This document shows positions 2,221-35,149 of a stretch of 35,513 nt of DNA, piece after piece. Each line of letters starts with the position of its first letter. Position 1 is the stretch's first letter. Source of the stretch: an uncultured Pseudomonadota bacterium (GTDB taxonomy: Bacteria > Pseudomonadota > Alphaproteobacteria > RF32 > CAG-239); assembly GCA_902795745.1 (NCBI GenBank), contig CADBMG010000057.1, positions 1-35,513 on the forward strand, in the 5' to 3' direction. Both the position numbers and the translations under genes were made by a program. A model generated the notes under the pieces. That model was not told where the DNA came from, made no database searches, and saw only the letters and a list, made by a program, of their open reading frames with translations.

Positions 2221-2754
2221 CATAACAATCGCCAAACAGAAAATCAATCCACCATAAAAAAATAATCCCAAAGGAGAACTGAGTGCAACCTTAAAATCGG
2301 TTGATGACGGAATAGCATTTTCAATAATCAATGTTTCAATCAGTACAAAAGCCAAATACCGCCATATAGTCGTAATCAAAAAGTATTTATCAAACCAAAA
2401 TGCTAATGGCAAAAGCAATAGGGGAGCCATTGCCGAAGGAAAAGCATTGTAGAACTTTATATTGCGAAAACCAACGCTGCCCATAACATAAGCATCATCG
2501 CGTTTTTTGGGGAACAAGTTAAAAGATGCCGGTTGTGCATTCAAAATAAATCCTACAAGAAAATGTGCCGTTTCATGCAGGACCGTTCCGGGAATGTTTA
2601 CCAGTGATGACATAAAAAGTCCTTGAAATGTATGACGCTTAACAAATGATAGGGATATAACCAAAAGTATAAGATAAAAACGGTTATGCAAAACAATGTT
2701 TAAGAACTCTTCCGAGTTCAAAAAGAGCCAAAAATTATTCATATATTCGCTCAT
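2218..2754 (-). CDS. Polytopic membrane protein with an HExxH motif (putative membrane zincin-type peptidase)
   Basis: LHETAHFLVG lies beside hydrophobic helices, and there are several predicted TM segments. The start overlaps the stop of the upstream TetR gene (ATGA). Confidence 0.5.
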   Translation of the reverse strand: MSEYMNNFWLFLNSEEFLNIVLHNRFYLILLVISLSFVKRHTFQGLFMSSLVNIPGTVLHETAHFLVGFILNAQPASFNLFPKKRDDAYVMGSVGFRNIKFYNAFPSAMAPLLLLPLAFWFDKYFLITTIWRYLAFVLIETLIIENAIPSSTDFKVALSSPLGLFFYGGLIFCLAIVM

Positions 2755-3347
2755 TCTTTGCTCTCAATGACCGTTAATCCGGCAATATATGTGTTGAGCA
2801 ATATTTGGCACAATGTTTTGCGGTTGATTTTAGAAAAAGAGTCTAACATTTCTTTGGTTAAAAACGAACTTAAACCGAACAACGTCAGCCACAAAACCTG
2901 CGAAGAAAGAATCCTTTCAGGACGTTCCATCTTCGGTACAATCTGCTGCATTAAAGCATTTAATCTGCTGGTAATTGCAGCTACTTTGCGTAAATACAAA
3001 AATGAATAGTTATGGGTTTCTTTGCGCAGATGAAAGTGATACAGCAAATACCACAAGTTTTTATTTTTCAGCACAAAATCAACAAAAACATCCAATAAAT
3101 TGTTCAAATCGAAATACGGATTTTGGGTTTGGGGAACCGTTGCCAGTTTCCTTCCCAAAGCATCCAACGTCATATAATTTTCGACCACTATGAAATTTTC
3201 CATATTGGCAAACTGATTATAAATCGCACCTACGGAACATCCCGAAGCCTCGGAAAGTTTGCGTACAGTCAGGGCTTCAGTTCCTTTTTCCTGTACAATT
3301 TTGCGGCCGATATTCAGTAGCATATTTTGAATATTGTCTTTTTCCAT
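2751..3347 (-). CDS. TetR/AcrR family transcriptional regulator
   Basis: N-terminal HTH: TVRKLSEASGCSVGAIYNQFANMENF. Length 198 aa. Confidence 0.85.
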   Translation of the reverse strand: MEKDNIQNMLLNIGRKIVQEKGTEALTVRKLSEASGCSVGAIYNQFANMENFIVVENYMTLDALGRKLATVPQTQNPYFDLNNLLDVFVDFVLKNKNLWYLLYHFHLRKETHNYSFLYLRKVAAITSRLNALMQQIVPKMERPERILSSQVLWLTLFGLSSFLTKEMLDSFSKINRKTLCQILLNTYIAGLTVIESKE

Positions 3348-9286: not shown

Positions 9287-10279
9287 ATGATGAAAAAGTT
9301 TTGTTTTATCGTTTTGAGTTTGAGTTTTGTTGCCACTGCGGTACATTCGCGATTACCGGAATATGACGATGATGCGGAATTTGATTATTGTTTGCGCTTA
9401 TCAAACGATATAGATCAATGTGTACAAGAAGAAACACAACGAGTACTTAACAGCGTTAAGCAAAACTATCGTGATATATTGGGTAATCGCAAGTTGTTAG
9501 CGTGGAATGGTTCAATGGAGGCCAATACCTCTATGTTGCGTGATATGTATGAGGGTTGGACCGCATATCGCAATCGTTTATGTTCGCTTTCCGAAGCGGC
9601 AGCCGTTAACTTGGAAGCAATTATCACAACCAAATATTCTTGTACTTTGTATCATACTTTACATCATAATGCTCATTTGAATGGCATTTTAGAGTTACTC
9701 AATTATAAAGGGGCAAAGCATAATCAAGATTTTACATTGTTTAAAGTTTATGAGCATGACAAGGAATATATAAATTGTCGTCAACAAGAGAAAAAAACTA
9801 AAAATGAATGTGTGAATGCTGAATTAGAGCGTTCTACTCAAAAAGTCAAAAATTTATACAATACATTTTTGAAAGATGAAAATGTTGGTAATTGGAACAA
9901 TGGTCCGGATTTGAAAAATGGTAATTATCGTGATATGTTTGATAGCTGGATTGCTTATCGCAACAGGATTTGTAATTTGGCGGCGTGGGCTTATAGAAAT
10001 GCCGATATTGAACCGAAAGTAGATGTGAAGGAATGTATTTTGTTTTTAACTGACGAGCATGCGGAAGTATTAGGTAATATTCTGTTTGCGGCGCACAGTT
10101 CTTTGGATGTCGGATTTGAGGATGGTTCCGATTGGGAAACTGATGGCGGATTAGCTGAAGGTAAGACCGTAACGCCTCTCAAAAGGAGAATTGAAAATGA
10201 CACACCGCTGATTGACGAAACGAAATCGGCGGAAAAACCAACTGATACCGGCAGAAAAACACCGGCATGGGCAATGTAA
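9287..10279 (+). CDS. Secreted protein with two LprI/DUF1311-like repeats
   Basis: Signal peptide MMKKFCFIVLSLSFVATAVHS. Duplicated motif MYEGWTAYRNRLCSL / MFDSWIAYRNRICNL. GGAG lies 6 nt upstream. Confidence 0.55.
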   Translation: MMKKFCFIVLSLSFVATAVHSRLPEYDDDAEFDYCLRLSNDIDQCVQEETQRVLNSVKQNYRDILGNRKLLAWNGSMEANTSMLRDMYEGWTAYRNRLCSLSEAAAVNLEAIITTKYSCTLYHTLHHNAHLNGILELLNYKGAKHNQDFTLFKVYEHDKEYINCRQQEKKTKNECVNAELERSTQKVKNLYNTFLKDENVGNWNNGPDLKNGNYRDMFDSWIAYRNRICNLAAWAYRNADIEPKVDVKECILFLTDEHAEVLGNILFAAHSSLDVGFEDGSDWETDGGLAEGKTVTPLKRRIENDTPLIDETKSAEKPTDTGRKTPAWAM

Positions 10280-10339
10280 AAGGCAGCTTTACCGATTTGC
10301 CGAGACAAAGACTTATAAGCTCAAAACTCTACTTTACCG

Positions 10340-11242
10340 TTAATGTTTGATAAGTTCGCTTTTATCGAATGTATAGCTTTGTCCACAGAAATTGCAGGTT
10401 GCGGTAATTTTTCCGTTTTCCGCCAATGCTTCAATATCTTCGTGTTTCATCGCGCTTAATGTGGCAAACAGCTTATCCTTGCTGCAACGGCATTCAAAAT
10501 GATATTCGGTTTCTTTAATAACAGATACTTTATGCTCGTGGTATAAGCGATACAAAATATCTTCCAGCGGCAGATGCGAATCAAATATTTCTTCATCACG
10601 CAAACTGTCGGTCAAGATTTTATCTTCATTCCAAACTTCGGTTATATTTGTTTCATCCGTGGTTTTTTTGCCTCCGTTTGAAGGCATTTTTTGAATCAGT
10701 ATGCCGGCGGCCGACCAATTTCCATTGCTTTTTTGCTGCACAAACAATCGTAAATGGGTATCTATTTGTTCTGATTGCTTGAAATAGCGTTCGGCACATT
10801 CTGCCAAATTTTTACCTTGTAAATCGACAATTCCTTGATATAAATCGGTATTTTTACCTTGATCTACCGTAAAAATCAAACTGCCTCGTCCCAACCAATG
10901 CGGAGTTGCTTCCAATTCTCCTTCGGTTTTGCGCAATTCCTGCGCTTTGAGCATTTTTTGCTCATCAAACTTAGCGGCGGTACGTACTGCACCTTTGGAG
11001 GTTACATCTGTTACCAACACCGAAATCGGTCCATCACCTTGCATTTGTAATGTAAAATATCCATCGTATTTCATCAAATCTGCCAACATAACACCCAGTG
11101 CCGTAGTTTCAGCAATAGCTGCGGCAACATTTTCTGGATATTGGCGCGGAGCAAAAATATCGGCAATAACATTATCAAGTCTCACGATGCGACCACGGAA
11201 AGAATTGTCATCCAAACTGAAAGAAATACACTTATCGTTCAT
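10340..11242 (-). CDS. hslO: Hsp33 redox-regulated chaperone
   Basis: C-terminal zinc centre CRCSKDKL...CNFCGQ (CxC...CxxC). Length 300 aa. Confidence 0.85.
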   Translation of the reverse strand: MNDKCISFSLDDNSFRGRIVRLDNVIADIFAPRQYPENVAAAIAETTALGVMLADLMKYDGYFTLQMQGDGPISVLVTDVTSKGAVRTAAKFDEQKMLKAQELRKTEGELEATPHWLGRGSLIFTVDQGKNTDLYQGIVDLQGKNLAECAERYFKQSEQIDTHLRLFVQQKSNGNWSAAGILIQKMPSNGGKKTTDETNITEVWNEDKILTDSLRDEEIFDSHLPLEDILYRLYHEHKVSVIKETEYHFECRCSKDKLFATLSAMKHEDIEALAENGKITATCNFCGQSYTFDKSELIKH

Positions 11243-11313
11243 CTTTTAATAACCTCTTTTGTTCTAAACTTTACACATGTTGCTAACTTAATTTATTTAA
11301 GGAGATTTTTCAA

Positions 11314-11886
11314 GTGTTTGATGAAGATAATCTGTCAGATACATCACAAAAAAGTTCTTATAAGCGCAAGCCGCAGAAAAAAATTACACTGCAGCGGCTG
11401 AAAAATATCGCGTTATATTATCTTAAACGCTACGAATCTTCGGTTGAAAATCTGCGCGGCGTTTTGATGAGACGAGTTGACGCTTACTCTCGCGAAAATC
11501 CGCAGTGGAATAAAGCAGAGGCTTATCAATGGATTGAAGAGATTTTAGAAAATTTTGAGCGATTACATTACTTAGATGACAATCGGTTTACTCAAATAAA
11601 AGTTCGCAGTTATTTGAATGCCGGAAAACCGGCTCGCTACATTCAAGAAAAATTGCGACAAAAAGGAATAGATGCTGCCGCAATAGAGGCTGTTTTGCAA
11701 GAACAGGATTATAATCCCTTACAAATGGCTTTGAAGTTGGCTAAGCGTAAGAAAATAGGGCCATATCGCGAACAAAATTTACGTCGCGAGTATTGGCAAA
11801 AAGATATGGGAACGCTGATTCGTGCCGGATTTGATTATGATGTGGTGTGTCAAGTTTTGAATATGGATAAGGCAGAAGAGAAATAG
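11314..11886 (+). CDS. recX: RecX-like regulatory protein
   Basis: Helical-repeat protein of 190 aa with RecX-like segments (ALYYLKRYESSVENLRGVLMRR, RYIQEKLRQKGI). GTG start with AAGGAG 9 nt upstream. Confidence 0.65.
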   Translation: MFDEDNLSDTSQKSSYKRKPQKKITLQRLKNIALYYLKRYESSVENLRGVLMRRVDAYSRENPQWNKAEAYQWIEEILENFERLHYLDDNRFTQIKVRSYLNAGKPARYIQEKLRQKGIDAAAIEAVLQEQDYNPLQMALKLAKRKKIGPYREQNLRREYWQKDMGTLIRAGFDYDVVCQVLNMDKAEEK

Positions 11887-11929
11887 TTTTAAACAGACTT
11901 GTGTCTTAGCGCGATAACATTTATGATAC

Positions 11930-11958
11930 TTGACTTTAAAAGATTTTTTATTTAATCT
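11930..11958 (+). promoter_or_regulatory. Island promoter P1 (TTGACT-17 nt-TAATCT), with a perfect TATAAT further downstream at 11974-11979
   Basis: Hexamers read from the sequence. It is homologous to P2 at 12426. Confidence 0.5.
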
Positions 11959-12010
11959 CTGCCTCAGAAAATCTATAATTATAAAACATTAAACTTAATA
12001 TTATTAGAGT

Positions 12011-12355
12011 ATGGAAAAAACAAAACTTTTCAACTTGGCGGGAAAACCGGTAGAGTATGAAAGCTGGAAATTTGATGAAGCGGAAGTTCTTAAAGCCGCA
12101 GAGAAATTTTTCGGGTTTGCGGTAACGGCTTATCCCTGCTTTTTATCAAAAGACAGTGTTTGGAGAGAGTACGAATTAGGATGGACATTTGACCAGCCCG
12201 ATAACCCGAAAGGGAAAAGGTTTATGGTCGGTTTTCTGGGTTTTGATACGGGATTTAAAAAGTATGGTTTTTCCAAATCCGTTCGACCTTGCAACGGCTT
12301 AACCTTTATGGGATGTACCATTGCTCTTGAAAAAGGAAAAATTGTTTTAAAGTAA
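12011..12355 (+). CDS. Hypothetical protein (114 aa), no recognisable motif
   Basis: ORF with a balanced, globular-looking composition. It is bracketed by P1 and terminator T1, which begins 6 nt after the stop. Confidence 0.6.
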   Translation: MEKTKLFNLAGKPVEYESWKFDEAEVLKAAEKFFGFAVTAYPCFLSKDSVWREYELGWTFDQPDNPKGKRFMVGFLGFDTGFKKYGFSKSVRPCNGLTFMGCTIALEKGKIVLK

Positions 12356-12360
12356 CCTTG

Positions 12361-12398
12361 TCCCCCGCCGCTTAACCGCCGCGAGGGATTTTTGTTGT
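12361..12398 (+). terminator. Intrinsic terminator T1
   Basis: GC-rich imperfect hairpin TCCCCCGCCGC-TTAACC-GCCGCGAGGGA, followed by TTTTTGTTG. Confidence 0.65.
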
Positions 12399-12425
12399 CA
12401 TGAAATTTTTTTTGTAAAAAAATAC

Positions 12426-12455
12426 TTGACTTTTGTCTATGGGGGGGGGTAAACT
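12426..12455 (+). promoter_or_regulatory. Island promoter P2 (TTGACT-18 nt-TAAACT) with a G9 homopolymer (12441-12449) inside the spacer
   Basis: Read directly from the sequence. It is paralogous to P1, where the spacer is 17 nt and has no G tract. Confidence 0.55.
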
Positions 12456-12520
12456 CTGAGCATAAAATCAAATTATAATGTTTTTTATTATTTTTATTAT
12501 TAAGAACCTCACGACAAGGC

Positions 12521-13426
12521 GTGAGTAAATGTTTGCTTATGAATATAAAAGGACAGCTTGATTCGGTGAGCCTCAAACAGTTTGGAGTTCCCGAAAATTT
12601 TGAGCATTTGTTTGACGATGTTTATCAGGGGGAAGACGGTGGTATTTACATTGCTCAGGCAAATATAGTCTCTGTTCCGTCGATGCATCTGCTCTCGAAA
12701 GGTGGCAAAGCCTACCCCATTCGCAATGCGCCGGAAATTACTGCAGAGATAGTCGAATTGCACAAGCAACTCTACACTCCGACACAAGCCGGCGAAAGAC
12801 TGAAAATTGCTGTGGGTGCCGCTTATCACCAAAATGAGAATGCTCGTTTCAAATTTCTCATTGAAAAGCAGTATCACCTTGCCATACCGGGAATTGTACC
12901 TGACGATTATTCGTTTGAGAAAGCTTACGAATATTTGGTGTTTGCTCCAAACTTCAACACCGTTTGCTCCGATGCGATTTCTGTTGAGAAAGGCGGTGCT
13001 TCCATCAAGGCCTTGTTTGCTAGCGGCCGTCTGTTGGTTGCAAGTAAAGATTGTTACGAGGCTATCGACTTTGTACCGATTTTCGAAACCACTGACGGTA
13101 AGACTATCTTCTGGGTCGGAGGCAAAGAACTTGCTCTGGCTTCTATAGTTTTCAACCGGCTGTGTTTCAGCCATTTGGGAACTTTCAAGAAGTTCACGCA
13201 AACAGCTGTAAACAATCTCATTGAAGTGAGGAATAAAGATCATTTTAACTTGTATCATCTGGGATCAACCATTGAATTTGTGGCGTGCGCGCCCTTTGAA
13301 TACGGGTTTGAAATTGATGTTGCTACCGGCAAGGTGGTTTGTTACTCTGCATATAGCTGTGACGGAATGAATGAATTCAGCAGAACCTTCCTCTTTGAAG
13401 GCGGAGAATATAAAATGAGCCTATGA
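12521..13426 (+). CDS. Hypothetical protein (301 aa from GTG 12521, or 295 aa from ATG 12539), no recognisable motif
   Basis: Long ORF downstream of P2 with a globular composition. Sampled lines are G+C-richer than sampled housekeeping genes. The plus strand is favoured over the antisense ORF by the promoter/terminator orientation. Confidence 0.65.
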   Translation: MSKCLLMNIKGQLDSVSLKQFGVPENFEHLFDDVYQGEDGGIYIAQANIVSVPSMHLLSKGGKAYPIRNAPEITAEIVELHKQLYTPTQAGERLKIAVGAAYHQNENARFKFLIEKQYHLAIPGIVPDDYSFEKAYEYLVFAPNFNTVCSDAISVEKGGASIKALFASGRLLVASKDCYEAIDFVPIFETTDGKTIFWVGGKELALASIVFNRLCFSHLGTFKKFTQTAVNNLIEVRNKDHFNLYHLGSTIEFVACAPFEYGFEIDVATGKVVCYSAYSCDGMNEFSRTFLFEGGEYKMSL

Positions 13427-13551
13427 GTAATGAAATTACCATCAAGCAAATGTGCAATAATCTGGATACATTGAGCGATTGTGGTTACGCGCTTTTGACT
13501 GAAAAGTCCAATGTTGTCAGAGCTGACAATTATTTGAAGTTATACTTCTAA
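13423..13551 (+). CDS. Untracked 42-aa ORF (MSNEITIKQMCNNLDTLSDCGYALLTEKSNVVRADNYLKLYF), translationally coupled
   Basis: Its ATG overlaps the upstream TGA (ATGA at 13423-13426). The ORF exactly fills the gap to terminator T2 and ends 26 nt before the hairpin. Confidence 0.4.
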   Translation: MSNEITIKQMCNNLDTLSDCGYALLTEKSNVVRADNYLKLYF

Positions 13552-13576
13552 TCTACGGCTTTATCAGCATTTATGC

Positions 13577-13616
13577 TCCCCTTACAGCCTAACCGCTGTA
13601 GGGGATTTTTTGTTGC
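13577..13616 (+). terminator. Intrinsic terminator T2 (paralogue of T1)
   Basis: CCCCT(T)ACAGC-CTAACC-GCTGTAGGGG is a 10-bp stem with one bulge, followed by T6 and GTTG. Confidence 0.75.
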
Positions 13617-13812
13617 TATAAATAAAAATAATTGAAATTTAAGGGATTCAATGTTATAGCTGGCTAAAATAAATCAAAAGAGCAATTTTAACATGGAAAA
13701 GAACGTAAAATATCTGCATTGGCACAGTTTTTGGGATAGTTTCATTTTATTTTATATTTATTAATTTGAGGACCCGGTCAAAATAAGCCTCGTTAAATAT
13801 TCCGGTTGTAGT

Positions 13813-14241
13813 ATGAATAAGTATGATGCGTTAGATTATGCTATGCAGAAGAATAAAGTATGGTGGAATGGCATGCTGGTTGCAACATTTTTATCTATGG
13901 TTTTTCTTACTCTGGCCTTTTTTTCCGGAGCAGGAACTGCGGCTAGCGATATATATGCCGGAAGACAGCCTGAAATATCTATGTTCACTGATGTGTGCTT
14001 TTTCGTCGGTGCATTGGATGCCATTTGTGCACTCATATACTTTGTTATATGGTGTAAGAGGATAACTTCTGACATGTCTTGCAAAGATACAGAGGACTTT
14101 GAAAGATACAAAGAAGATGTTCGCAAAGGTAAATACGGCAAAAGCGCAATTGTATATGAAGAGTCTACTATGGATGAGATCTTAGATCCAGAACGTTTCA
14201 AGCCTCATAATTGGAAAGAACGTTGGTTCGGATTTTTGTAA
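13813..14241 (+). CDS. Hypothetical 2-TM membrane protein (142 aa) with a charged C-terminal tail
   Basis: Two hydrophobic helices (MLVATFLSMVFLTLAFFSGAG and VCFFVGALDAICALIYFVIW), then a K/E/D-rich tail. No clear SD. Confidence 0.5.
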   Translation: MNKYDALDYAMQKNKVWWNGMLVATFLSMVFLTLAFFSGAGTAASDIYAGRQPEISMFTDVCFFVGALDAICALIYFVIWCKRITSDMSCKDTEDFERYKEDVRKGKYGKSAIVYEESTMDEILDPERFKPHNWKERWFGFL

Positions 14242-14252
14242 TATGGCAAATT

Positions 14253-14284
14253 AAAAGCTCTGATTTTATATCAGAGCTTTTTGT
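14253..14284. terminator. Bidirectional intrinsic terminator
   Basis: AAAAGCTCTGA/TCAGAGCTTTT is a perfect 11-bp stem flanked by an A-run and a T-run, between convergent genes. Confidence 0.8.
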
Positions 14285-14322
14285 ATATGTTTTTAGTTTT
14301 ATTGCCATTATTTGATTATTTT

Positions 14323-14727
14323 TTAAAGAATTGTGCGAATGCCAAGCAGGCATAAAATCAAAATTCCTGCTGTTGCTCCCCAAACCCATACTCCGGAGCC
14401 TTTGTAGGATTTAGCAGTTTTATACAATCCTCTCAAAACAATAACCATATAGGCACCAAAACAACCGCTCACAATCAAGTGCAACATTAGCATGGTAGCG
14501 ATTCTTCCGCCGCGAATCAGTAAATTGATAAAATGCGAACCGATATAATAAATTACATTTAAGTTCTGTACACAATATCCGCTGGAGCGCGCCTTTGCAC
14601 ATACGGCTTGGGCAAAAGAACCATGGGTTATACTGACAATCAGTATGAAAAGTAAAAATCCTAAAACACCGAATCCGAAAAAAACTTTAGCAAGTGAATA
14701 TTCTCCGGCAATTAGTTTTTTCAGCAT
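14323..14727 (-). CDS. Small polytopic membrane protein (134 aa), unknown function
   Basis: Three to four hydrophobic helices. It is the last gene of a long minus-strand string. Confidence 0.55.
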   Translation of the reverse strand: MLKKLIAGEYSLAKVFFGFGVLGFLLFILIVSITHGSFAQAVCAKARSSGYCVQNLNVIYYIGSHFINLLIRGGRIATMLMLHLIVSGCFGAYMVIVLRGLYKTAKSYKGSGVWVWGATAGILILCLLGIRTIL

Positions 14728-14749
14728 TTTGCAGTCTCCGTTTGCTTAG

Positions 14750-16465
14750 TTAAAAATGCGATACAATATTAATATACGGTCTGATACCTAAATTTTTCTT
14801 AAAATTGGCTATATATTCATTCATTTCTTTCCATGCAGTCCAACGATCAACAAAAACTTTGGCCGTTTCCGGTGATTTAGAAAGTTGAACTTTAATTATT
14901 TCTTTTAACAATTCTTGACATCCTGACTGCATTTTATCGAAATCTATGTGCAATTTTTTATTGTCATCAAACCAAAATGCACCGTATTCGCTCAAGAAAT
15001 TATATTCAATCAAATCAGCCACTCGGTGTGCTTCCATATCTGCCGGAAAAGCAATCATAAAGTGGCGACGAATAATCCATGTGGTATAGATTTTTTTAAG
15101 CAGTTCGTCGTTGATAATACCATTTTTAACGTACTGTGGCATCATTGCAGCGGAAATAACGTCAGCCTTGTGTTCTTCAATAATATGTTGATAAACTCCG
15201 AGAGCAGTTTGATAACTGCTGTCCGGTCCGAGCGAATGTCCGTTTTCGTGCCCTATGGTAAACAAATGATCTGCCTCTTCATCATAGTATTTATGCAAAT
15301 CAGCAGAAACGAGACCATCAAGAATCTTTTTAATTTTTTCTTTATCGGAACCGGCTCTTACCTGACGATGATAAACATTACGTCGTCCACCGCCGTGTGA
15401 CAATGCCGGTTTGTCGTTGTTAGGCAGATTTTGCGCTGTGGTAATACCTCCGCGACACAAAGCATAATCACCGGTTAGTGCAACAATATCGGCATCTACC
15501 ATAGTCTGCTTTAATCCCTTTTTCCCTCCTACGTTTTGTGCATACGTGTTCGAGAAAGGCATTAAATCGGCTAATTTAATCATTTCATCTTTAAATTTTA
15601 ACAGTAATTCTGTTCCTTTTTTATTAACAATTCCGACACGAATGCCAAGCATATCTTTGGGCACAGGTTTAATGTTGAGTTTGTTCAAACGCGCACAAAG
15701 TTCTTTATTGGTAAATATTTTAGGCGTCAGCTTATCGTCATAGTTTTCACGACTGATTGTAAATTCCAAAGGCGTGTCTTGCATTTGCGCCCAATGTTTA
15801 TCAGCCAAAATATCCATTTCTTCATTGTTTTGCAACAATGCTTGCGCCTGCCAACCAAGGTAATCTTTAAACAATTCATCTGTCGTAAAATGAGCGGCAC
15901 ATTCCAATTCATTAGCTATTTCTGAGAATTCATCAGCAAAATATTCTGTATAATCAATAGCTTTTAATTCATTGCCTTCGCGACGAACCATTGTTCTGGC
16001 ACTTAAAATTTTCTGTACTTGTTCCGTTTTTCCAGCATCAAGCATTTGACCTATAATGGTAAAAAGTTCTTGCTCGTCTAAATCGGTGGGGTAAAAATTG
16101 CGACCTTCATAAGCATGAATACCTTCAAATATTTCTACCGGTTCCTTATCCAATCCGTTATATCCGACTACACCGTTGAGAGAATTAAATAACTTTAAGG
16201 CATCCGCGGCATAAGAACTATCGGCAGCAGCAACTTCCAAGGCCTGTTTTTGCGTTAAATTGAGAGGATGATCCATTTCCAAAGCAACATCATTCATAAT
16301 TTTTGCGGCATTTACTAAGTATCTCAAAGCTTTTTTATCTCCATCACTGAGTTCCAAATAACTTTGATTGTTCTCATCTATCAGCTCAATTTTTCGCATT
16401 TGGTTTTCAATGCGATTATGTAAATCTGCTTCGTCGATATTAATTTTAAATCCGTTAATTTTCAT
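14750..16465 (-). CDS. Zinc hydrolase of the M49/DPP3-like family (NUDT3 C-terminal-domain type)
   Basis: HENGHSLGP (HExxH variant) followed by EEHKAD, matching the two zinc-binding motifs of DPP3-like enzymes. Length 571 aa. Confidence 0.6.
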   Translation of the reverse strand: MKINGFKINIDEADLHNRIENQMRKIELIDENNQSYLELSDGDKKALRYLVNAAKIMNDVALEMDHPLNLTQKQALEVAAADSSYAADALKLFNSLNGVVGYNGLDKEPVEIFEGIHAYEGRNFYPTDLDEQELFTIIGQMLDAGKTEQVQKILSARTMVRREGNELKAIDYTEYFADEFSEIANELECAAHFTTDELFKDYLGWQAQALLQNNEEMDILADKHWAQMQDTPLEFTISRENYDDKLTPKIFTNKELCARLNKLNIKPVPKDMLGIRVGIVNKKGTELLLKFKDEMIKLADLMPFSNTYAQNVGGKKGLKQTMVDADIVALTGDYALCRGGITTAQNLPNNDKPALSHGGGRRNVYHRQVRAGSDKEKIKKILDGLVSADLHKYYDEEADHLFTIGHENGHSLGPDSSYQTALGVYQHIIEEHKADVISAAMMPQYVKNGIINDELLKKIYTTWIIRRHFMIAFPADMEAHRVADLIEYNFLSEYGAFWFDDNKKLHIDFDKMQSGCQELLKEIIKVQLSKSPETAKVFVDRWTAWKEMNEYIANFKKNLGIRPYINIVSHF

Positions 16466-17684
16466 TTTTTATCTCCACTGCCTTAAATTTGTAATATTTA
16501 AATTCCGATTCATTCAATTTACCAATAATTCCTGCTTTTGATTTTAGGCGACTGATAATTTCAGTCCATTCCGTCGGTCTTTCATTTGCTAAAATCAGTG
16601 ATTTGTATCCTTTATAGAACAAATAAACACCGTCATCAACATCTAAATCTGCCACTTGCGGTATAATTTCTTCCTTATCGGTTAATAAGTAAAGTTTGAC
16701 ATTTTTTGCATCAATATTTTTGTGTACAAAACGTTGCGCCATACGAACCAAAGCAACAACAATGCCTGTATTATCAGCCACTTTTTCAAAAGTATCGCTC
16801 TTGGCATAAAGTGTACCGCGATCATATAGCCGATATGTGTCTTCTGATTTCAGCGGCCACATAGGAGGGAGATTATCTTTGCTGCGAGCTAAATTTATGT
16901 TGAACCAATACCATAAAGAAACTCCATAACGTTGAACATATTGTTGCAAATTGTATTTTTGCTTTATAGGTAAAGGTTGTTCTTGGTTGTTTTGCATAGC
17001 AAATAATGCCGAATAATCTTTTTCCAATGCCTGAGCAATTTGTGTATCAATCACATCAAATACATTCATATTAAAGTGATATTTCTGCGCAAAATTAATT
17101 GCCTTATCAACTAAAATGTCATTTTTATCTGTCAGATTTGTCAGCATAACAACCATATTTTGCGGTTGTTGCAAATAGCTTTCTATTGCCTTTTCAATAT
17201 GCTCTTCGTTCTTGTTAAGCTCTAATGTAACGATATCAGTCGGTTTTATCACACTATCCAGAAGAGTTGCATGACCTGACAAGTCACTACGGCCAGCGTG
17301 AACCAGTGCAATTTTGGTAATTTTATTATATTTACGTATTTCTCGGTAAAGTCGTTCGACAACTTCTATACTGTCCTGATTTAAAAATTTGGGAACAATA
17401 ACTATTTTAACATGTTTTTTTTTGTAATTTGCCGAATGATTCAAATACATAGAAACATTATCTTGCAGCATGTTTTTATCAGAATAGAAAATAGCTGCTA
17501 TAACGGGTTTTATTTCGTTTTTTGTTTCGCGTACACGACCATATTCAACGGCTTTTTCATAGTTGGCAAAAATATTGTGATTAAAGCGTTGCCAATTGAT
17601 GTGTCCAATCATTGCGGCAAAGATTAATAATGTGCCCCAAAAACAGATTTTCTTTATTAAAATACCGGTTTTGCGCTTGGCCAT
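16455..17684 (-). CDS. N-terminally membrane-anchored protein (409 aa), unknown function
   Basis: GGAGAA lies 5 nt upstream of the ATG. One N-terminal TM helix (ICFWGTLLIFAAMIG). No catalytic motif recognised. The stop overlaps the downstream start by 11 nt. Confidence 0.55.
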   Translation of the reverse strand: MAKRKTGILIKKICFWGTLLIFAAMIGHINWQRFNHNIFANYEKAVEYGRVRETKNEIKPVIAAIFYSDKNMLQDNVSMYLNHSANYKKKHVKIVIVPKFLNQDSIEVVERLYREIRKYNKITKIALVHAGRSDLSGHATLLDSVIKPTDIVTLELNKNEEHIEKAIESYLQQPQNMVVMLTNLTDKNDILVDKAINFAQKYHFNMNVFDVIDTQIAQALEKDYSALFAMQNNQEQPLPIKQKYNLQQYVQRYGVSLWYWFNINLARSKDNLPPMWPLKSEDTYRLYDRGTLYAKSDTFEKVADNTGIVVALVRMAQRFVHKNIDAKNVKLYLLTDKEEIIPQVADLDVDDGVYLFYKGYKSLILANERPTEWTEIISRLKSKAGIIGKLNESEFKYYKFKAVEIKNEN

Positions 17685-28747: not shown

Positions 28748-30028
28748 TTAAATTATTCTTTGCATTTTGCAAATAAAGAAGGAATCCATACCGCCGCTGA
28801 TTTTATGGTAAAAAGGCATCGTTCTTATCCATCCCTTATCGGTGATAAGCTTGTCGTCCCAAGTTCCGTATGAGCTTATAGTTTCGGTTTTAATCGGTAC
28901 AATTTTAAAATTCGGATGCATTTTTAAGAAGTTATTTATTTGTCTTTCTCCTTCATCTTGGGCAATTGAGCAAACGCTATAAACCAAAATTCCGCCAACG
29001 GTAATTATATTTTCGCATACATTTAACAATTTTTCTTGTAGGGTAGTGGCTTTAGCTACGTCTTCGCTATTCTTGATATGCAAAACTTCCGGATGACGAC
29101 GAAAAGTTCCACTGGCCGAGCATGGAGCATCCAGAAGAACAACATCGTATTTTTCAGTGGAATTTTGCATAAAATCAATTGCATCAATAACTTGGGTTTG
29201 AACATTATTAATCTTTAATCTTTGCAGATTACTGCGCAATTTTTCCAATCGCTCAGCAGATACATCAAGTGCGGTGACATTTGCTCCACCTGTCGCAAGT
29301 TGTGCGGTTTTACCCCCCGGAGCTGCACACAAATCAATCACCTTTTTTCCTTTAATGCTGTCCAGTGTTAGTACGGGTAATGACGCGGCGACATCCTGTA
29401 TCCACCATTTGCCTTCCGAAAATCCTTCCAAATAGGTAATTTTGGTGTTGCCCGACAATCGCAAACTGCCGTTCGGCAAAATCTCAGCGTTGAGCTTTTC
29501 GGCCCAAACATCCGGATTGTCTTTTACCGTAATATCCAGTGGAGGAATATTATTTACACTGCGATTAATTTGTTCAATTTGCATGTCGCTATATCCGCGG
29601 AGGAGCTGTAAAAAGTCCGTCGGTAAATAACAGGATTGTTGCAACTTTTGTTGCCAAATACTTTTTTCTGCGGCAATTTTACGTAAAACAGCATTTGCTA
29701 ATCCGCTCAAAAATTTATCACTGACCTTGCGAACATTTTGTACCGTATCGTTAATTACGGCATATTGCGCCGTATCCATAAGTAAAAGTTCGGCAATTGC
29801 CATCAGTAATAAATATTCGGCAGGACGATGCTTATGCGGAATTTTCTTTTTTAAGAAAAAACGTAAAACATTCTTTAATCCTGCCCAATTGCGCAAACTT
29901 GTCAAAATCAGCATATTGGCAAACGGTAACTCATCTTTGCTGAAATTATCTTTGAGTTCGGCAAAAAATACTTTATTCTCTAAAATAGTTTGCAGAACTT
30001 GTGCGCATTTAATTCTGAGGTTGGGCAT
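28748..30028 (-). CDS. rsmB: 16S rRNA (cytosine-C5)-methyltransferase RsmB/Sun
   Basis: DLCAAPGGKT (SAM), LLDAPCSASGT and YSVCS catalytic cysteines, and a NusB-like N-terminal region. Confidence 0.85.
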   Translation of the reverse strand: MPNLRIKCAQVLQTILENKVFFAELKDNFSKDELPFANMLILTSLRNWAGLKNVLRFFLKKKIPHKHRPAEYLLLMAIAELLLMDTAQYAVINDTVQNVRKVSDKFLSGLANAVLRKIAAEKSIWQQKLQQSCYLPTDFLQLLRGYSDMQIEQINRSVNNIPPLDITVKDNPDVWAEKLNAEILPNGSLRLSGNTKITYLEGFSEGKWWIQDVAASLPVLTLDSIKGKKVIDLCAAPGGKTAQLATGGANVTALDVSAERLEKLRSNLQRLKINNVQTQVIDAIDFMQNSTEKYDVVLLDAPCSASGTFRRHPEVLHIKNSEDVAKATTLQEKLLNVCENIITVGGILVYSVCSIAQDEGERQINNFLKMHPNFKIVPIKTETISSYGTWDDKLITDKGWIRTMPFYHKISGGMDSFFICKMQRII

Positions 30029-33000
30029 TTGTTTCTTTCTTTTGATAATCTGTCATTGTTTGAATCAGAATATACATCAGAGGAATTAAAACCAACCCTG
30101 CCGCCGTACCGATAATCATTCCGGCAAACACCGGTACACCTACGGCAACACGGCTTCCTGCCGATGCCCCACTTGCCCAGACCAGCGGTGCCACACCCAA
30201 GATGAAGGTCATAGCCGTCATTAACACAGCACGGAAACGTTCCTTGGTTCCATATAGGGCGGCGTGCAGTACGGTTGCTCCGCGTTTATGTGCTTCACTG
30301 GCAAATTCTACAATCAAAATAGCATTTTTTGCCGCTAATCCGACCAGCAATACCAAACCAAGTTGGGCGTAGATGCTAAGTGACATTTTTGTGATAAACA
30401 GACCAATTAAAGCTCCGAGCATTGCTCCGGTAACCGACAACATAACCGCAAGCGGAATGGTCCAGCTCTCGTATTGCGCTACCATGAACAGATAGGCAAA
30501 TAAAACAGCAAAGGCGATAATGTAGAAAATCTGACCTTGGTTATTTTTTTCTTGCAGGCTTGCACCTGACCAAGCATAAGTATATCCTTTAGGTAGAGTT
30601 TTAACAGCCAAATCTTCCAATGCTTTCATTGCTTCACCGGTGGAGAACCCGATATTAGCCATAGCATTAACCGTTGCACTCGGATATTGATTATAGCGTT
30701 CAATACCACGCGGCAGCAACACGGTTTTAATCTTGATTAAACTGCCCAACGGAACCATAACACCTTTGCTGCTGTGGACATATATTTTATCCAAACTGCT
30801 CAGGTCTTTACGATATTTCCAATCCGCTTGAATTTTTACCTTATTAACCTGTGTTCCAATATTAATATCATTTACATAGCTTGAACCGATATAAGTTTGT
30901 AACGAAGAATAAATCGTACCGATAGCAACACCTATTGATTCGGCCTTTTCTCGGTCAATTTCAATATAAGCATGAGGTGTTTGCGCATTGTAAGTAGAAT
31001 AAGCCAACATAATTTGCGGCATAGCCATAGCAGCGCGCGTAAAGTTGTTGACAACCGTTTCAAGCTCATTCATATCCGTTGATTCAACAGATTGAATTTT
31101 GAAATCCATGGCATTTGTTGAACCTAATCCCGGAATCGCCGGCATTTCGAAGAATTGAATTTTAGCTTCGGAAAATGTAGAAGTAACAGCTTGCAAACGT
31201 TTTAATATATTGGTTGAAAAATCTTTATCATCCTTTCGTTCATTCCAATTTTTCAAACTCAAAACACCAAAACCGACATTTTCTCCTTGTCCGGCCATAA
31301 TGCTGAAACCTTCCAAATTCATTATTGATTTAACAGCTGATTCGGTCTTTGCTGTTTCCATAATTTTCTGATTAACCGCCTCAGTTCGTACATTTGATGC
31401 ACCTTCCGGCAATTGTACATTTATCATAATTATACCTTGATCTTCATTCGGCAAAAACGAAGTAGCCGTAACTTTAAGGAAAAAGCCGATGCAAATAGCT
31501 ATTATTCCCAAAATAAATACAATTACACTGATTTTGCGTCCCAAATAACTGACCGCCACTAAATATTTATTGGTAATACCGGAGATAAAACGGTTAAACC
31601 AGCCGAGAGGTCCGCTCTTTTTTTCTTCAAACGGTCGTAAAAATGTTGCAGCTAATGCCGGAGACAAAGTCAGCGCATTAACCGACGAAAATAGAATGGC
31701 AAAACTTATAGTTATGGCAAATTGTTGATAGATTTTTCCGGTAATTCCGCCCATAAAGGCAATCGGCACGAAAATCGCAAGCAAAACCAATGTCGTGGCA
31801 ACTACTGCACTTGAAACTTGCTCCATAGCCTTGGTTGCAGCCTTTTTTGGTGAAAGGTTTTCTTCTTGCATCAGGAATAATGAACGTTCCACTACTACAA
31901 TGGCATCATCAACCACCAAACCTATGGCCAAAACTAAACCGAACAACGTCAAAATGTTCAGGTTAAATCCTAATGCTTTCATCACGGCAAAAGTGGCTAA
32001 AATTGAAACCGGAATAGCAATCGACGGTACCAATGTCGCACGCCAATCTTGTAAAAAGATGTAGCAAACAAATACCACTAAGCCGAAAGTCAAAAACAGG
32101 GTAAAGAAGACTTCTTCAATTGATGCCAAAATAAAGTCCGTGGTATCTACGAAGATTTTAACTTCAAAATCTTTCGGATAAAAACGCTCTAATTTTGCTA
32201 ACTCGGCTCTGACGGCTTTCATAGCATTAACGGCATTTGCGCCAGATGATTTGTTAATCATAATTGAAACGGAAGGTTGTCCGTCCACCGTAGAGTTCAG
32301 CAAATAGTTTTCCGAGCCGAGTTCGACACGCGCAATATCTTTAAGACGCACCAGTCCACCTTCTTCAGCCGTGCGTACGATGATATTTTCAAAATCCTTC
32401 GGATCATTTAAACGTCCTTTTGTTTCCAAAGAATACACTAATACCTGCTTACCATCTCCCGGAGCGGAACCTACCGAACCGAGGGACGGCTGAACATTCT
32501 GACTGCGAATAGCTGCCTTAATCGTATCGAGAGGAATGTTTAAGGCGGTGGCTTTATCGGCATCAATCCATACTCGCATACTGATAGCCGAACCCATAAC
32601 GTTAACTTCGCCTACGCCATAAGCGCGACTGATGGCAATTTTAATATTGTTTTCTACATAGTTGTTTAAAAAATTACTGTCATAAGTGCCATTCGGTGAG
32701 GTCACTTGCAAAAATGCCAAAATATCGGACGAACGCCGCTGCACCGTAACACCCATATCTTGCACTTCTTTTGGCAATGTTGCCACAACTTGCTGAATAC
32801 GGTTTTGCACTTTTACTTGGTCAATATCCGGATCGGTACCGGTCTCAAAAGCTACGGAAAGCTGATATGCACCTGAGTTATACGAATTTGATGACATATA
32901 AAGCATATTTTCGATACCGTTAATGGCTTTTTCAATCGGAATTCCGACATTATTTGCCACCGTTTCGGCACTTGCTCCCGGATAAGTGGTTGAAACGCGG

Positions 33001-33131
33001 ATTTCCGGCGGAGCAATTTCCGGATACATGCCGATAGGCATGGTCATAACGGAAACAACACCGGCGAGAGCCATTACAATAGCAATTACGACGGCAAAGC
33101 GAGGTCTGTCAATAAAGAACTTTGAAAACAT
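30009..33131 (-). CDS. RND multidrug efflux transporter, AcrB/HAE1 family
   Basis: MFSKFFIDRPRFAVVIAIV N-terminus, 12-TM architecture with two large periplasmic loops. Length 1040 aa. Confidence 0.95.
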   Translation of the reverse strand: MFSKFFIDRPRFAVVIAIVMALAGVVSVMTMPIGMYPEIAPPEIRVSTTYPGASAETVANNVGIPIEKAINGIENMLYMSSNSYNSGAYQLSVAFETGTDPDIDQVKVQNRIQQVVATLPKEVQDMGVTVQRRSSDILAFLQVTSPNGTYDSNFLNNYVENNIKIAISRAYGVGEVNVMGSAISMRVWIDADKATALNIPLDTIKAAIRSQNVQPSLGSVGSAPGDGKQVLVYSLETKGRLNDPKDFENIIVRTAEEGGLVRLKDIARVELGSENYLLNSTVDGQPSVSIMINKSSGANAVNAMKAVRAELAKLERFYPKDFEVKIFVDTTDFILASIEEVFFTLFLTFGLVVFVCYIFLQDWRATLVPSIAIPVSILATFAVMKALGFNLNILTLFGLVLAIGLVVDDAIVVVERSLFLMQEENLSPKKAATKAMEQVSSAVVATTLVLLAIFVPIAFMGGITGKIYQQFAITISFAILFSSVNALTLSPALAATFLRPFEEKKSGPLGWFNRFISGITNKYLVAVSYLGRKISVIVFILGIIAICIGFFLKVTATSFLPNEDQGIIMINVQLPEGASNVRTEAVNQKIMETAKTESAVKSIMNLEGFSIMAGQGENVGFGVLSLKNWNERKDDKDFSTNILKRLQAVTSTFSEAKIQFFEMPAIPGLGSTNAMDFKIQSVESTDMNELETVVNNFTRAAMAMPQIMLAYSTYNAQTPHAYIEIDREKAESIGVAIGTIYSSLQTYIGSSYVNDINIGTQVNKVKIQADWKYRKDLSSLDKIYVHSSKGVMVPLGSLIKIKTVLLPRGIERYNQYPSATVNAMANIGFSTGEAMKALEDLAVKTLPKGYTYAWSGASLQEKNNQGQIFYIIAFAVLFAYLFMVAQYESWTIPLAVMLSVTGAMLGALIGLFITKMSLSIYAQLGLVLLVGLAAKNAILIVEFASEAHKRGATVLHAALYGTKERFRAVLMTAMTFILGVAPLVWASGASAGSRVAVGVPVFAGMIIGTAAGLVLIPLMYILIQTMTDYQKKETNAQPQN

Positions 33132-34986: not shown

Positions 34987-35011
34987 ATAGCAATTTTGAC
35001 TAGAAATGCAA
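34984..35011 (-). promoter_or_regulatory. Candidate promoter of the efflux TetR-MFP-RND operon (TTGCAT-16 nt-TATATA)
   Basis: Hexamers read on the minus strand. The -35 lies inside the conserved TATTGCA. Confidence 0.4.
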
Positions 35012-35020
35012 TATTTTTTT

Positions 35021-35046
35021 TATACATTCAGGTATGTATATTTATT
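35021..35046 (-). promoter_or_regulatory. Operator-like element TATACATTCAGGTATGTATATTTATT (inverted repeat TATACAT-N6-ATGTATA), copy B
   Basis: It is the exact reverse complement of 1716-1741. It has the same orientation and similar distance relative to its downstream gene as copy A. Confidence 0.6.
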
Positions 35047-35149
35047 AAAAATTATTTAAAATTAACCCGAAATATTTTCCAATAGCAAAAAAATGAAATT
35101 TTATATTTAGCGGTCATATTTCAGTGCTTATCTCGCAATTTAATAATCA

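Follow-up and report, generated by a model that had tools for sequence, protein, structure and literature searches.

A length-variable poly-G tract in the spacer of a putative promoter at a hypervariable islet of an uncultured rumen alphaproteobacterium

A contig from an uncultured rumen alphaproteobacterium (GenBank CADBMG010000057.1; the whole 35,513-nucleotide stretch that we analysed is referred to as the window) carries a run of nine guanines that differs in length between strains of the species. Each of four distinct strains has a tract of its own length, and elsewhere in their common 4.5 kb they are separated by 0-19 substitutions and 0 indels; the tract is therefore hypermutable, that is, a genuine mutational hot spot and a simple-sequence repeat prone to slippage. 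The spacer of a putative sigma-70-type promoter, derived from a conserved promoter module, contains this tract, and whether it serves there as a mutational volume or ON/OFF control of the kind known from the Neisseria porA gene we consider about evenly balanced. As we read the locus, the tract probably tunes or silences the genes downstream.

Re-reading the sequence at 12426-12455 gives TTGACT TTTGTCTATGGGGGGGGG TAAACT, in agreement with a preliminary description that had placed TTGACT at 12426-12431 and TAAACT at 12450-12455, with an 18-nt spacer between them. That description had also seen no further G or C run above 6 nt in length, and a homopolymer count of the window bears this out: the runners-up are C6 at 29313-29318 and then several G5. 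The G+C content of the window is 38%, and a first-order Markov model of the window predicts, at a length of at least 9, 0.016 G runs and 0.009 C runs. Approximately 85 kb of related loci likewise lack G or C runs of at least 7 nt, apart from the copy of the same tract in one contig (L013). The sister promoter P1 has, as claimed, a 17-nt spacer that is free of G runs; a T6 run occupies the place where the G-tract promoter (P2) has its guanines, and the two have ATACTTGACTTT and TAAnCTCTG in common. The A/T-rich block directly upstream of P2 occupies the position of an UP element, as which it may act. The features of the locus are as follows:

11930-11958, + strand: sister promoter P1, putative (TTGACT 11930-11935, 17 nt, TAATCT 11953-11958), upstream of the 114-aa ORF
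12361-12393, + strand: imperfect hairpin resembling a terminator (TCCCCCGCCGC / GCCGCGAGGGA), with T5 behind it, downstream of the 114-aa gene
12402-12423, + strand: A/T-rich block (T8 at 12406-12413, A7 at 12416-12422), directly 5' of the -35-like hexamer
12426-12431, + strand: -35-like hexamer TTGACT
12441-12449, + strand: G9 homopolymer, filling the 3' half of the spacer (18 nt, 12432-12449)
12450-12455, + strand: -10-like hexamer TAAACT; its homologue in the promoter module is TAAAAT/TAAACT
12459-13743, + strand: strain-specific cassette, beginning 3 nt after the -10-like hexamer and replacing 45 nt of other strains
12464-12483, + strand: conserved module box AAAATCAAATTATAATGTTT, with a TATAAT-like hexamer inside it (12474-12479)
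12508-12525, + strand: 5'-UTR hairpin CTCACG-ACAAGG-CGTGAG, 6 bp, about 14 nt upstream of the start codon
12539-13426, + strand: gene of an orphan protein of 295 aa (301 aa in the ORF list, counted from GTG 12521)
13423-13551, + strand: 42-aa ORF, overlapping the stop codon of the 295-aa gene
13579-13604, + strand: intrinsic-terminator-like hairpin with T run, ending the captured operon
13813-14241, + strand: gene of a 142-aa species-specific orphan with two hydrophobic segments
14230-14239, + strand: direct repeat GGATTTTTGT (10 bp), other copy at 12386-12395, marking the islet borders

In a consensus scan, hexamer pairs of such quality number 11 in 10000-15000, compared with 13.8 ± 4.1 in shuffles; since they are no commoner than in shuffled sequence, the assignment of a promoter rests on homology. 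The homology is to a module of which there are more than 20 copies in the fetched loci of related rumen alphaproteobacterial MAGs. The module opens with an A/T-rich region, after which come TTGC[A/T]T, a spacer with AATTTTCGTC at its end, TAAAAT, 13 or 14 nt and AAATTATAAT; some 14 nt ahead of the start codon there is often a hairpin (CCTCACG-ACAAGG-CGTGAG). TAAACT, TAATAT and TAGAAT occur beside TAAAAT as variants of the -10, and written as a pattern the module reads TTGC[A/T]T-spacer-TA(A/G/T)A(A/C)T-13/14 nt-AAATTATA. Of the 20 canonical copies listed, 18 have a spacer of 17 nt and two a spacer of 16 nt, and none of them has a G tract. Sequence varies in the first half of the spacer but length does not, a pattern that is the signature of a real -35/-10 pair. 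The genes behind the module comprise homologues of the 295-aa protein (39% protein identity), an unrelated M3 peptidase (pepF-like) and small orphans, and the conservation of the module far exceeds that of the proteins it precedes. P1 and P2 both align with it hexamer for hexamer, and we accept TTGACT/TAAACT as a putative promoter derived from this module. In P2 the G run stands in place of the conserved T-rich half of the module's spacer, the conserved spacer motif ATTTTCGTC is missing and the spacer is 1 nt above the family standard. A search with nhmmer gives no further copy in the window; the module is therefore not a general housekeeping promoter.

Copies of the module lie at L001:1195-1290 and 2613-2715, L004:5445 and 5887, L005:3080 and 5892, L006:1732, L008:537, L010:534, in L016-L020 and at 12464-12525 of the window. 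With its 5'-UTR the module spans about 90-110 nt, and a conserved terminator motif (..CCCCCGCCGC..GCCGCGAGGGATTTTTT) usually precedes it. The TATAAT that lies about 18 nt past the module's real -10 recalls, speculatively, sigma-dependent promoter-proximal pause elements. The 5'-UTR hairpin is 100% paired in 10 copies (for example L002:190-207, L003:1002-1019 and L007:5253-5270); in L003 and L007 there are two adjacent compensatory pair changes (AU to GC and CG to UA), and its loop ends in AAGG in every copy. The hairpin has no Rfam match, and in the window as a whole Rfam gives nothing at gathering score, with only a chance-level match near the locus. A leader peptide over the hairpin was considered and rejected: the in-frame ATG...TAA present in the window and in L005-type copies is absent from L002 and L004.

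Exact-protein look-up with the 114-aa and 134-aa proteins found 15 same-species contigs, five of which cover the promoter. Look-ups with the 297-, 295- and 301-aa protein versions gave no match, those with RecX and the 42-aa ORF reached only contigs that stop short of the tract, and protein-profile scans of genome and metagenome contigs returned distant relatives only, none with a G tract. The five promoter-bearing contigs are 99.4-99.9% identical and form one species with the window. The tract lengths are:

Window: G9; carries the cassette
L013 (ERR2027896): G9; 1 SNP in 884 nt compared with the window
L027 (SRR33675018): G10; cassette-free
L029 (SRR27608066): G11; cassette-free
L028 (SRR33675034): G12; cassette-free
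L030 (SRR33675028): at least G11; the contig ends inside the tract

The preliminary description had named an invariant G9 across related strains as an observation that would speak against it; the lengths found are 9, 9, 10, 11, at least 11 and 12. In all six assemblies the flanks, TACTTGACTTTTGTCTAT[Gn]TAAACT, are identical, and the polymorphism is thus that of a tract on conserved flanks among closely related strains. The indel-free 4.5 kb holds seven A/T runs of 7-9 nt. Pairs of near-identical contigs show no difference in the tract: the window and L013 both have G9, and L028 and L030 have G12 and at least G11. Deep sequencing of N. meningitidis has found homopolymers of 8 nt or more to be predominantly variable, and the tract, with 9 nt in the window and 10-12 nt in other strains, lies above this slippage length of about 8 nt (PMC5084427).

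Two of the contigs end in the tract itself. Logan contigs are built from a de Bruijn graph with k = 31, singleton k-mers having been removed first (PMC12424806). The terminal 31-mer of L029 is exactly 20 nt plus G11, and that of L030 is exactly G11 plus 20 nt (the contig-end positions are L029:4539-4569 and L030:4539-4549). Were tract lengths mixed within one sample, the graph would have to branch at just these two 31-mers. The contig ends suggest mixed lengths within a sample, a hint only, which slippage of poly-G during sequencing could mimic. Contig ends that span a tract could also serve as a general screen of Logan assemblies for hypermutable repeats.

The tract had been described as a feature of the promoter of a 301-aa operon. 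This has to be revised: the cassette with that operon is strain-specific, and elsewhere the same promoter precedes the 142-aa gene, which in cassette-free strains begins about 115 nt downstream of it. When L027-L030 are compared with the window, homology runs over 12361-12458, is followed by 45 nt that the window lacks, and resumes at 13744. In the cassette (1.3 kb) the 5'-UTR part of the module and the 295-aa ORF are accompanied by the truncated partner ORF and a terminator, with some 140 nt in addition; the cassette is shared by the window and L013, and the 3' side of the insertion is confirmed by L023, L024 and L025. The upstream joint falls inside TAAACT(C/T)TG, which is common to the G-tract promoter and to module copies such as that of L004 (TAAACTCT). 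A joint within sequence common to promoter copies suggests recombination between such copies. The exchange also affects what lies next to the tract. In cassette-free strains there are two downstream candidate promoters, TTGCTT-17-TATATT (L034 1324-1352) and TTAAAA-17-TATATT, the former beginning immediately after TAAACT in L027-L030; at the cassette joint of the window this TTGCTT is replaced by CTGAGC, and the downstream candidate there is the TATAAT box at 12474-12479.

The cassette is one of several alternatives at this position. The islet between the 114-aa and 134-aa genes (window 12386-14239; compared across L010-L014 and L026-L032) has at least five structural variants within the one species: it is empty, or holds the M3 peptidase only, the M3 peptidase with the G-tract promoter and the 142-aa gene, the G-tract promoter with the 295-aa cassette and the 142-aa gene, or the variant seen in L014, whose continuation is absent from the window. 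L026, L031 and L032 are without everything that lies between the two GGATTTTTGT copies in the window: in L026 the terminator of the 114-aa gene is joined directly to 14230, and in L031 and L032 the M3 peptidase comes first, followed by a terminator and then 14230. In L010-L012 the M3 peptidase follows the 114-aa gene. The hairpin at 12361-12393 is a copy of the terminator motif that is repeated between cassettes in related genomes, and strains of the species diverge structurally right past it, at about 12394. Many assemblies break around the islet. We put forward, as a doubtful proposal, that the islet is a plug-in contingency locus in which the conserved terminator and promoter modules would be substrates for recombination that moves orphan cassettes in and out, and the poly-G promoter would set the expression of any cassette that arrives behind its -10.

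The genes that this promoter precedes are orphans. For the 295-aa ORF the most likely start codon is ATG 12539, in line with all the homologues, rather than GTG 12521. It has 6 relatives among 5.8 billion clustered proteins, and a profile search retrieves 29 cluster representatives among 1.84 billion proteins, all of them unannotated; relatives in genome records all come from rumen MAGs ('Alphaproteobacteria bacterium' or 'uncultured proteobacterium'). We found no family match for it in Pfam, NCBIfam, PADLOC or PHROGs, no hydrophobic segment and, with tblastn, no match in phages and plasmids. The AlphaFold2 model is poor (pLDDT 59), and Foldseek against PDB gave meaningless beta-propeller-like matches with a TM of about 0.2. 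The 42-aa ORF is the remnant of a 99-aa partner gene (L001:2209-2508, L002:1134-1433) from which about 57 internal codons have been deleted in frame; because of this loss, the partner gene may be decaying in the window strain. For the 142-aa protein the homologue search gave none.

The window belongs to the core chromosome of a Gram-negative bacterium; among its other products are a NUDIX protein, a Mur ligase, HslO, RecX, SerRS, LptF/G, Gmk, LigA and RsmB. Near both ends of the contig lies one arm of an inverted repeat pair (1708-1755 and 35007-35054; 48 nt, 85% complementary), each arm being palindromic around TATACAT-N6-ATGTATA. The arm at 1708-1755 is upstream of an ORF at 1735-2157 and near a TetR-family gene (2751-3347); the arm at 35007-35054 is upstream of an operon containing a 1040-aa ORF (30009-33131). 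The pair may be a shared operator site. Downstream of the islet, a 571-aa protein (14750-16465, - strand) has an HExxH-like motif, HENGH, and no Pfam, NCBIfam, PADLOC or PHROG match; its 409-aa neighbour (16455-17684, - strand) is likewise unannotated, and the two are conserved in all same-species contigs.

How might the tract act? We infer four things: the TTGACT/TAAACT pair is in use, expression depends on tract length, switching occurs often and is reversible, and it is selected. Each G gained or lost would alter the distance between the -35 and the -10, with 17 nt at G8, 18 nt at G9 and 19-21 nt at G10-G12. Since spacing changes with each G, promoter output should change stepwise, with full output expected at G8, less at G9 and practically none from G10 upwards. 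In the porA spacer, one G more or less changes transcription (PMC3899988). In most strains the switch would head the gene of the 142-aa orphan, a putative membrane protein, and in the window strain, where the 1.3-kb cassette would have recombined in 3 nt after the -10, it would head the 295-aa orphan operon; this captured operon appears to have no other good upstream promoter, and P2 is the best upstream candidate. Among the sampled alleles the spacers measure 18-21 nt, and 19-21 nt in all alleles other than G9, the window strain (with L013) having the shortest tract and the one nearest to the 17-nt optimum; the sampled populations would accordingly sit in low or off states. The preliminary description had proposed that the loss of one G would restore the optimal spacing of the sister promoter. 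A spacer of 17 nt is indeed the family standard, as in P1, but it occurs in none of the six alleles. Against control by the tract, alleles with 19-21 nt would be off, which also fits a dead promoter with a neutrally drifting tract, and the truncated partner gene could mean that the operon is decaying. Also against it count the chance-level frequency of such hexamer pairs, the candidate promoters further downstream, the absence of a tract difference within the near-identical pairs and the lack of a second repeat locus in the DNA available.

It is very improbable that the G run, or the differences in its length, are errors of assembly or sequencing. All data are metagenome consensus contigs and poly-G is error-prone on Illumina platforms, but the tract with its identical flanks comes from six contigs of six different runs and from at least three assembly pipelines, and at 9-12 nt it is easily contained in one read and in k = 31; recurrence of this kind, in a tract shorter than both k and the read, makes an artefact unlikely. 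The junctions of the cassette have independent support of their own, from L013 and from L023/L024/L025. What such a tract does is a separate matter. It is possible, though on the whole rather improbable, that TTGACT/TAAACT is a disabled relic, that the genes are read from promoters further downstream and that the hypermutable tract varies neutrally, with little or no effect of its length. The range of spacers, all at 18-21 nt and none at 17, would fit such a relic, as would the loss of ATTTTCGTC from P2, the truncation of the partner gene and the presence, directly downstream in cassette-free strains, of better-spaced candidates (TTGCTT-17-TATATT and TTAAAA-17-TATATT). No second long repeat locus was found in the window and the other fetched loci, which together are a small part of the genome; this, too, would fit such a relic. 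However, the run persists at 9-12 nt in every strain that has the unit, and long G runs are normally purged unless they are tolerated or selected. The -35, the -10 and the UP-like A/T block are likewise intact and in the correct register in all strains, and the cassette joint of the window destroys the downstream TTGCTT; of the upstream candidates for the operon there, the G-tract promoter is then the best.

The same downstream hexamers allow a different role, which we hold to be distinctly unlikely: the tract could lie upstream of another core promoter and set the distance, or the helical phase, between it and the A/T block or an activator site. In cassette-free strains the G run would then lie at about -42 to -53 of TTGCTT-17-TATATT, which starts immediately after TAAACT in L027-L030 and whose TTGCTT is the module's own -35 variant; tract lengths of 10-12 would pose no problem. 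But this candidate promoter is known by its hexamers, in AT-rich DNA, and the activator site is hypothetical. In the window, moreover, the cassette joint has replaced that -35 by CTGAGC, which makes action from upstream inapplicable to the 295-aa operon.

Returning to control through the spacer, the tract plausibly belongs with those of porA, opc and fetA, a class that it resembles in length and in polymorphism between strains. As in porA of Neisseria meningitidis, a poly-G (about 9-11 nt there) lies inside the spacer, here that of a putative promoter, and strains differ in its length. Unlike porA, whose spacers range over 15-17 nt, the spacers here are 18-21 nt and thus on the long side of the optimum; the effect on expression is a predicted one, the host is an uncultured rumen alphaproteobacterium, and the genes are orphans instead of a known surface antigen. 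In Neisseria opc and fetA, transcription volume is set by the length of a homopolymer, a poly-C in or overlapping the spacer, and many strains are low or off; control by length is proposed here by analogy, the tract being of the other strand and base, and the opc and fetA genes, unlike ours, have a documented surface-protein function. In hifA/hifB of Haemophilus influenzae the number of TA repeats alters the -10/-35 spacing (PMC3899988). That repeat differs from ours in being a dinucleotide within overlapping divergent promoters, whereas here a mononucleotide lies in a unidirectional promoter. G/C runs of 8 or more are hypermutable sites in the low-GC genomes of Campylobacter and Helicobacter (PMC2823697, PMC5084427). 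Tracts in those genera are mostly intragenic; they work by shifting the reading frame, and a genome has dozens of them, whereas the DNA available here shows one tract, which lies between genes. In the small part of the genome sampled, the several long repeat loci that mark a contingency-locus genome were not seen. For action from upstream of a core promoter the model is the poly-C of Bordetella fim2/fim3, which sets the distance to it. The TAAA repeats of Neisseria nadA are a second model, the length of the upstream repeat setting the distance to the core promoter (PMC3899988); the corresponding upstream site is hypothetical here.

What is documented here is the capture of a mutable, putative promoter by a cassette, 3 nt after its -10. 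Repeat-driven phase variation has been documented mainly in culturable, host-adapted pathogens, and to our knowledge no repeat-based phase variation is known in this clade and habitat, the uncultured alphaproteobacteria of the rumen. If confirmed, control by the tract would mean that the same mechanism operates in an uncultured rumen commensal, and that public metagenome assemblies alone can reveal such switches, as tract-length series on identical flanks. It would also provide a handle on two orphan gene families, the expression of which the cell appears to benefit from varying. And if the plug-in reading of the islet were true, payload and dosage would both vary within a rumen alphaproteobacterial population.
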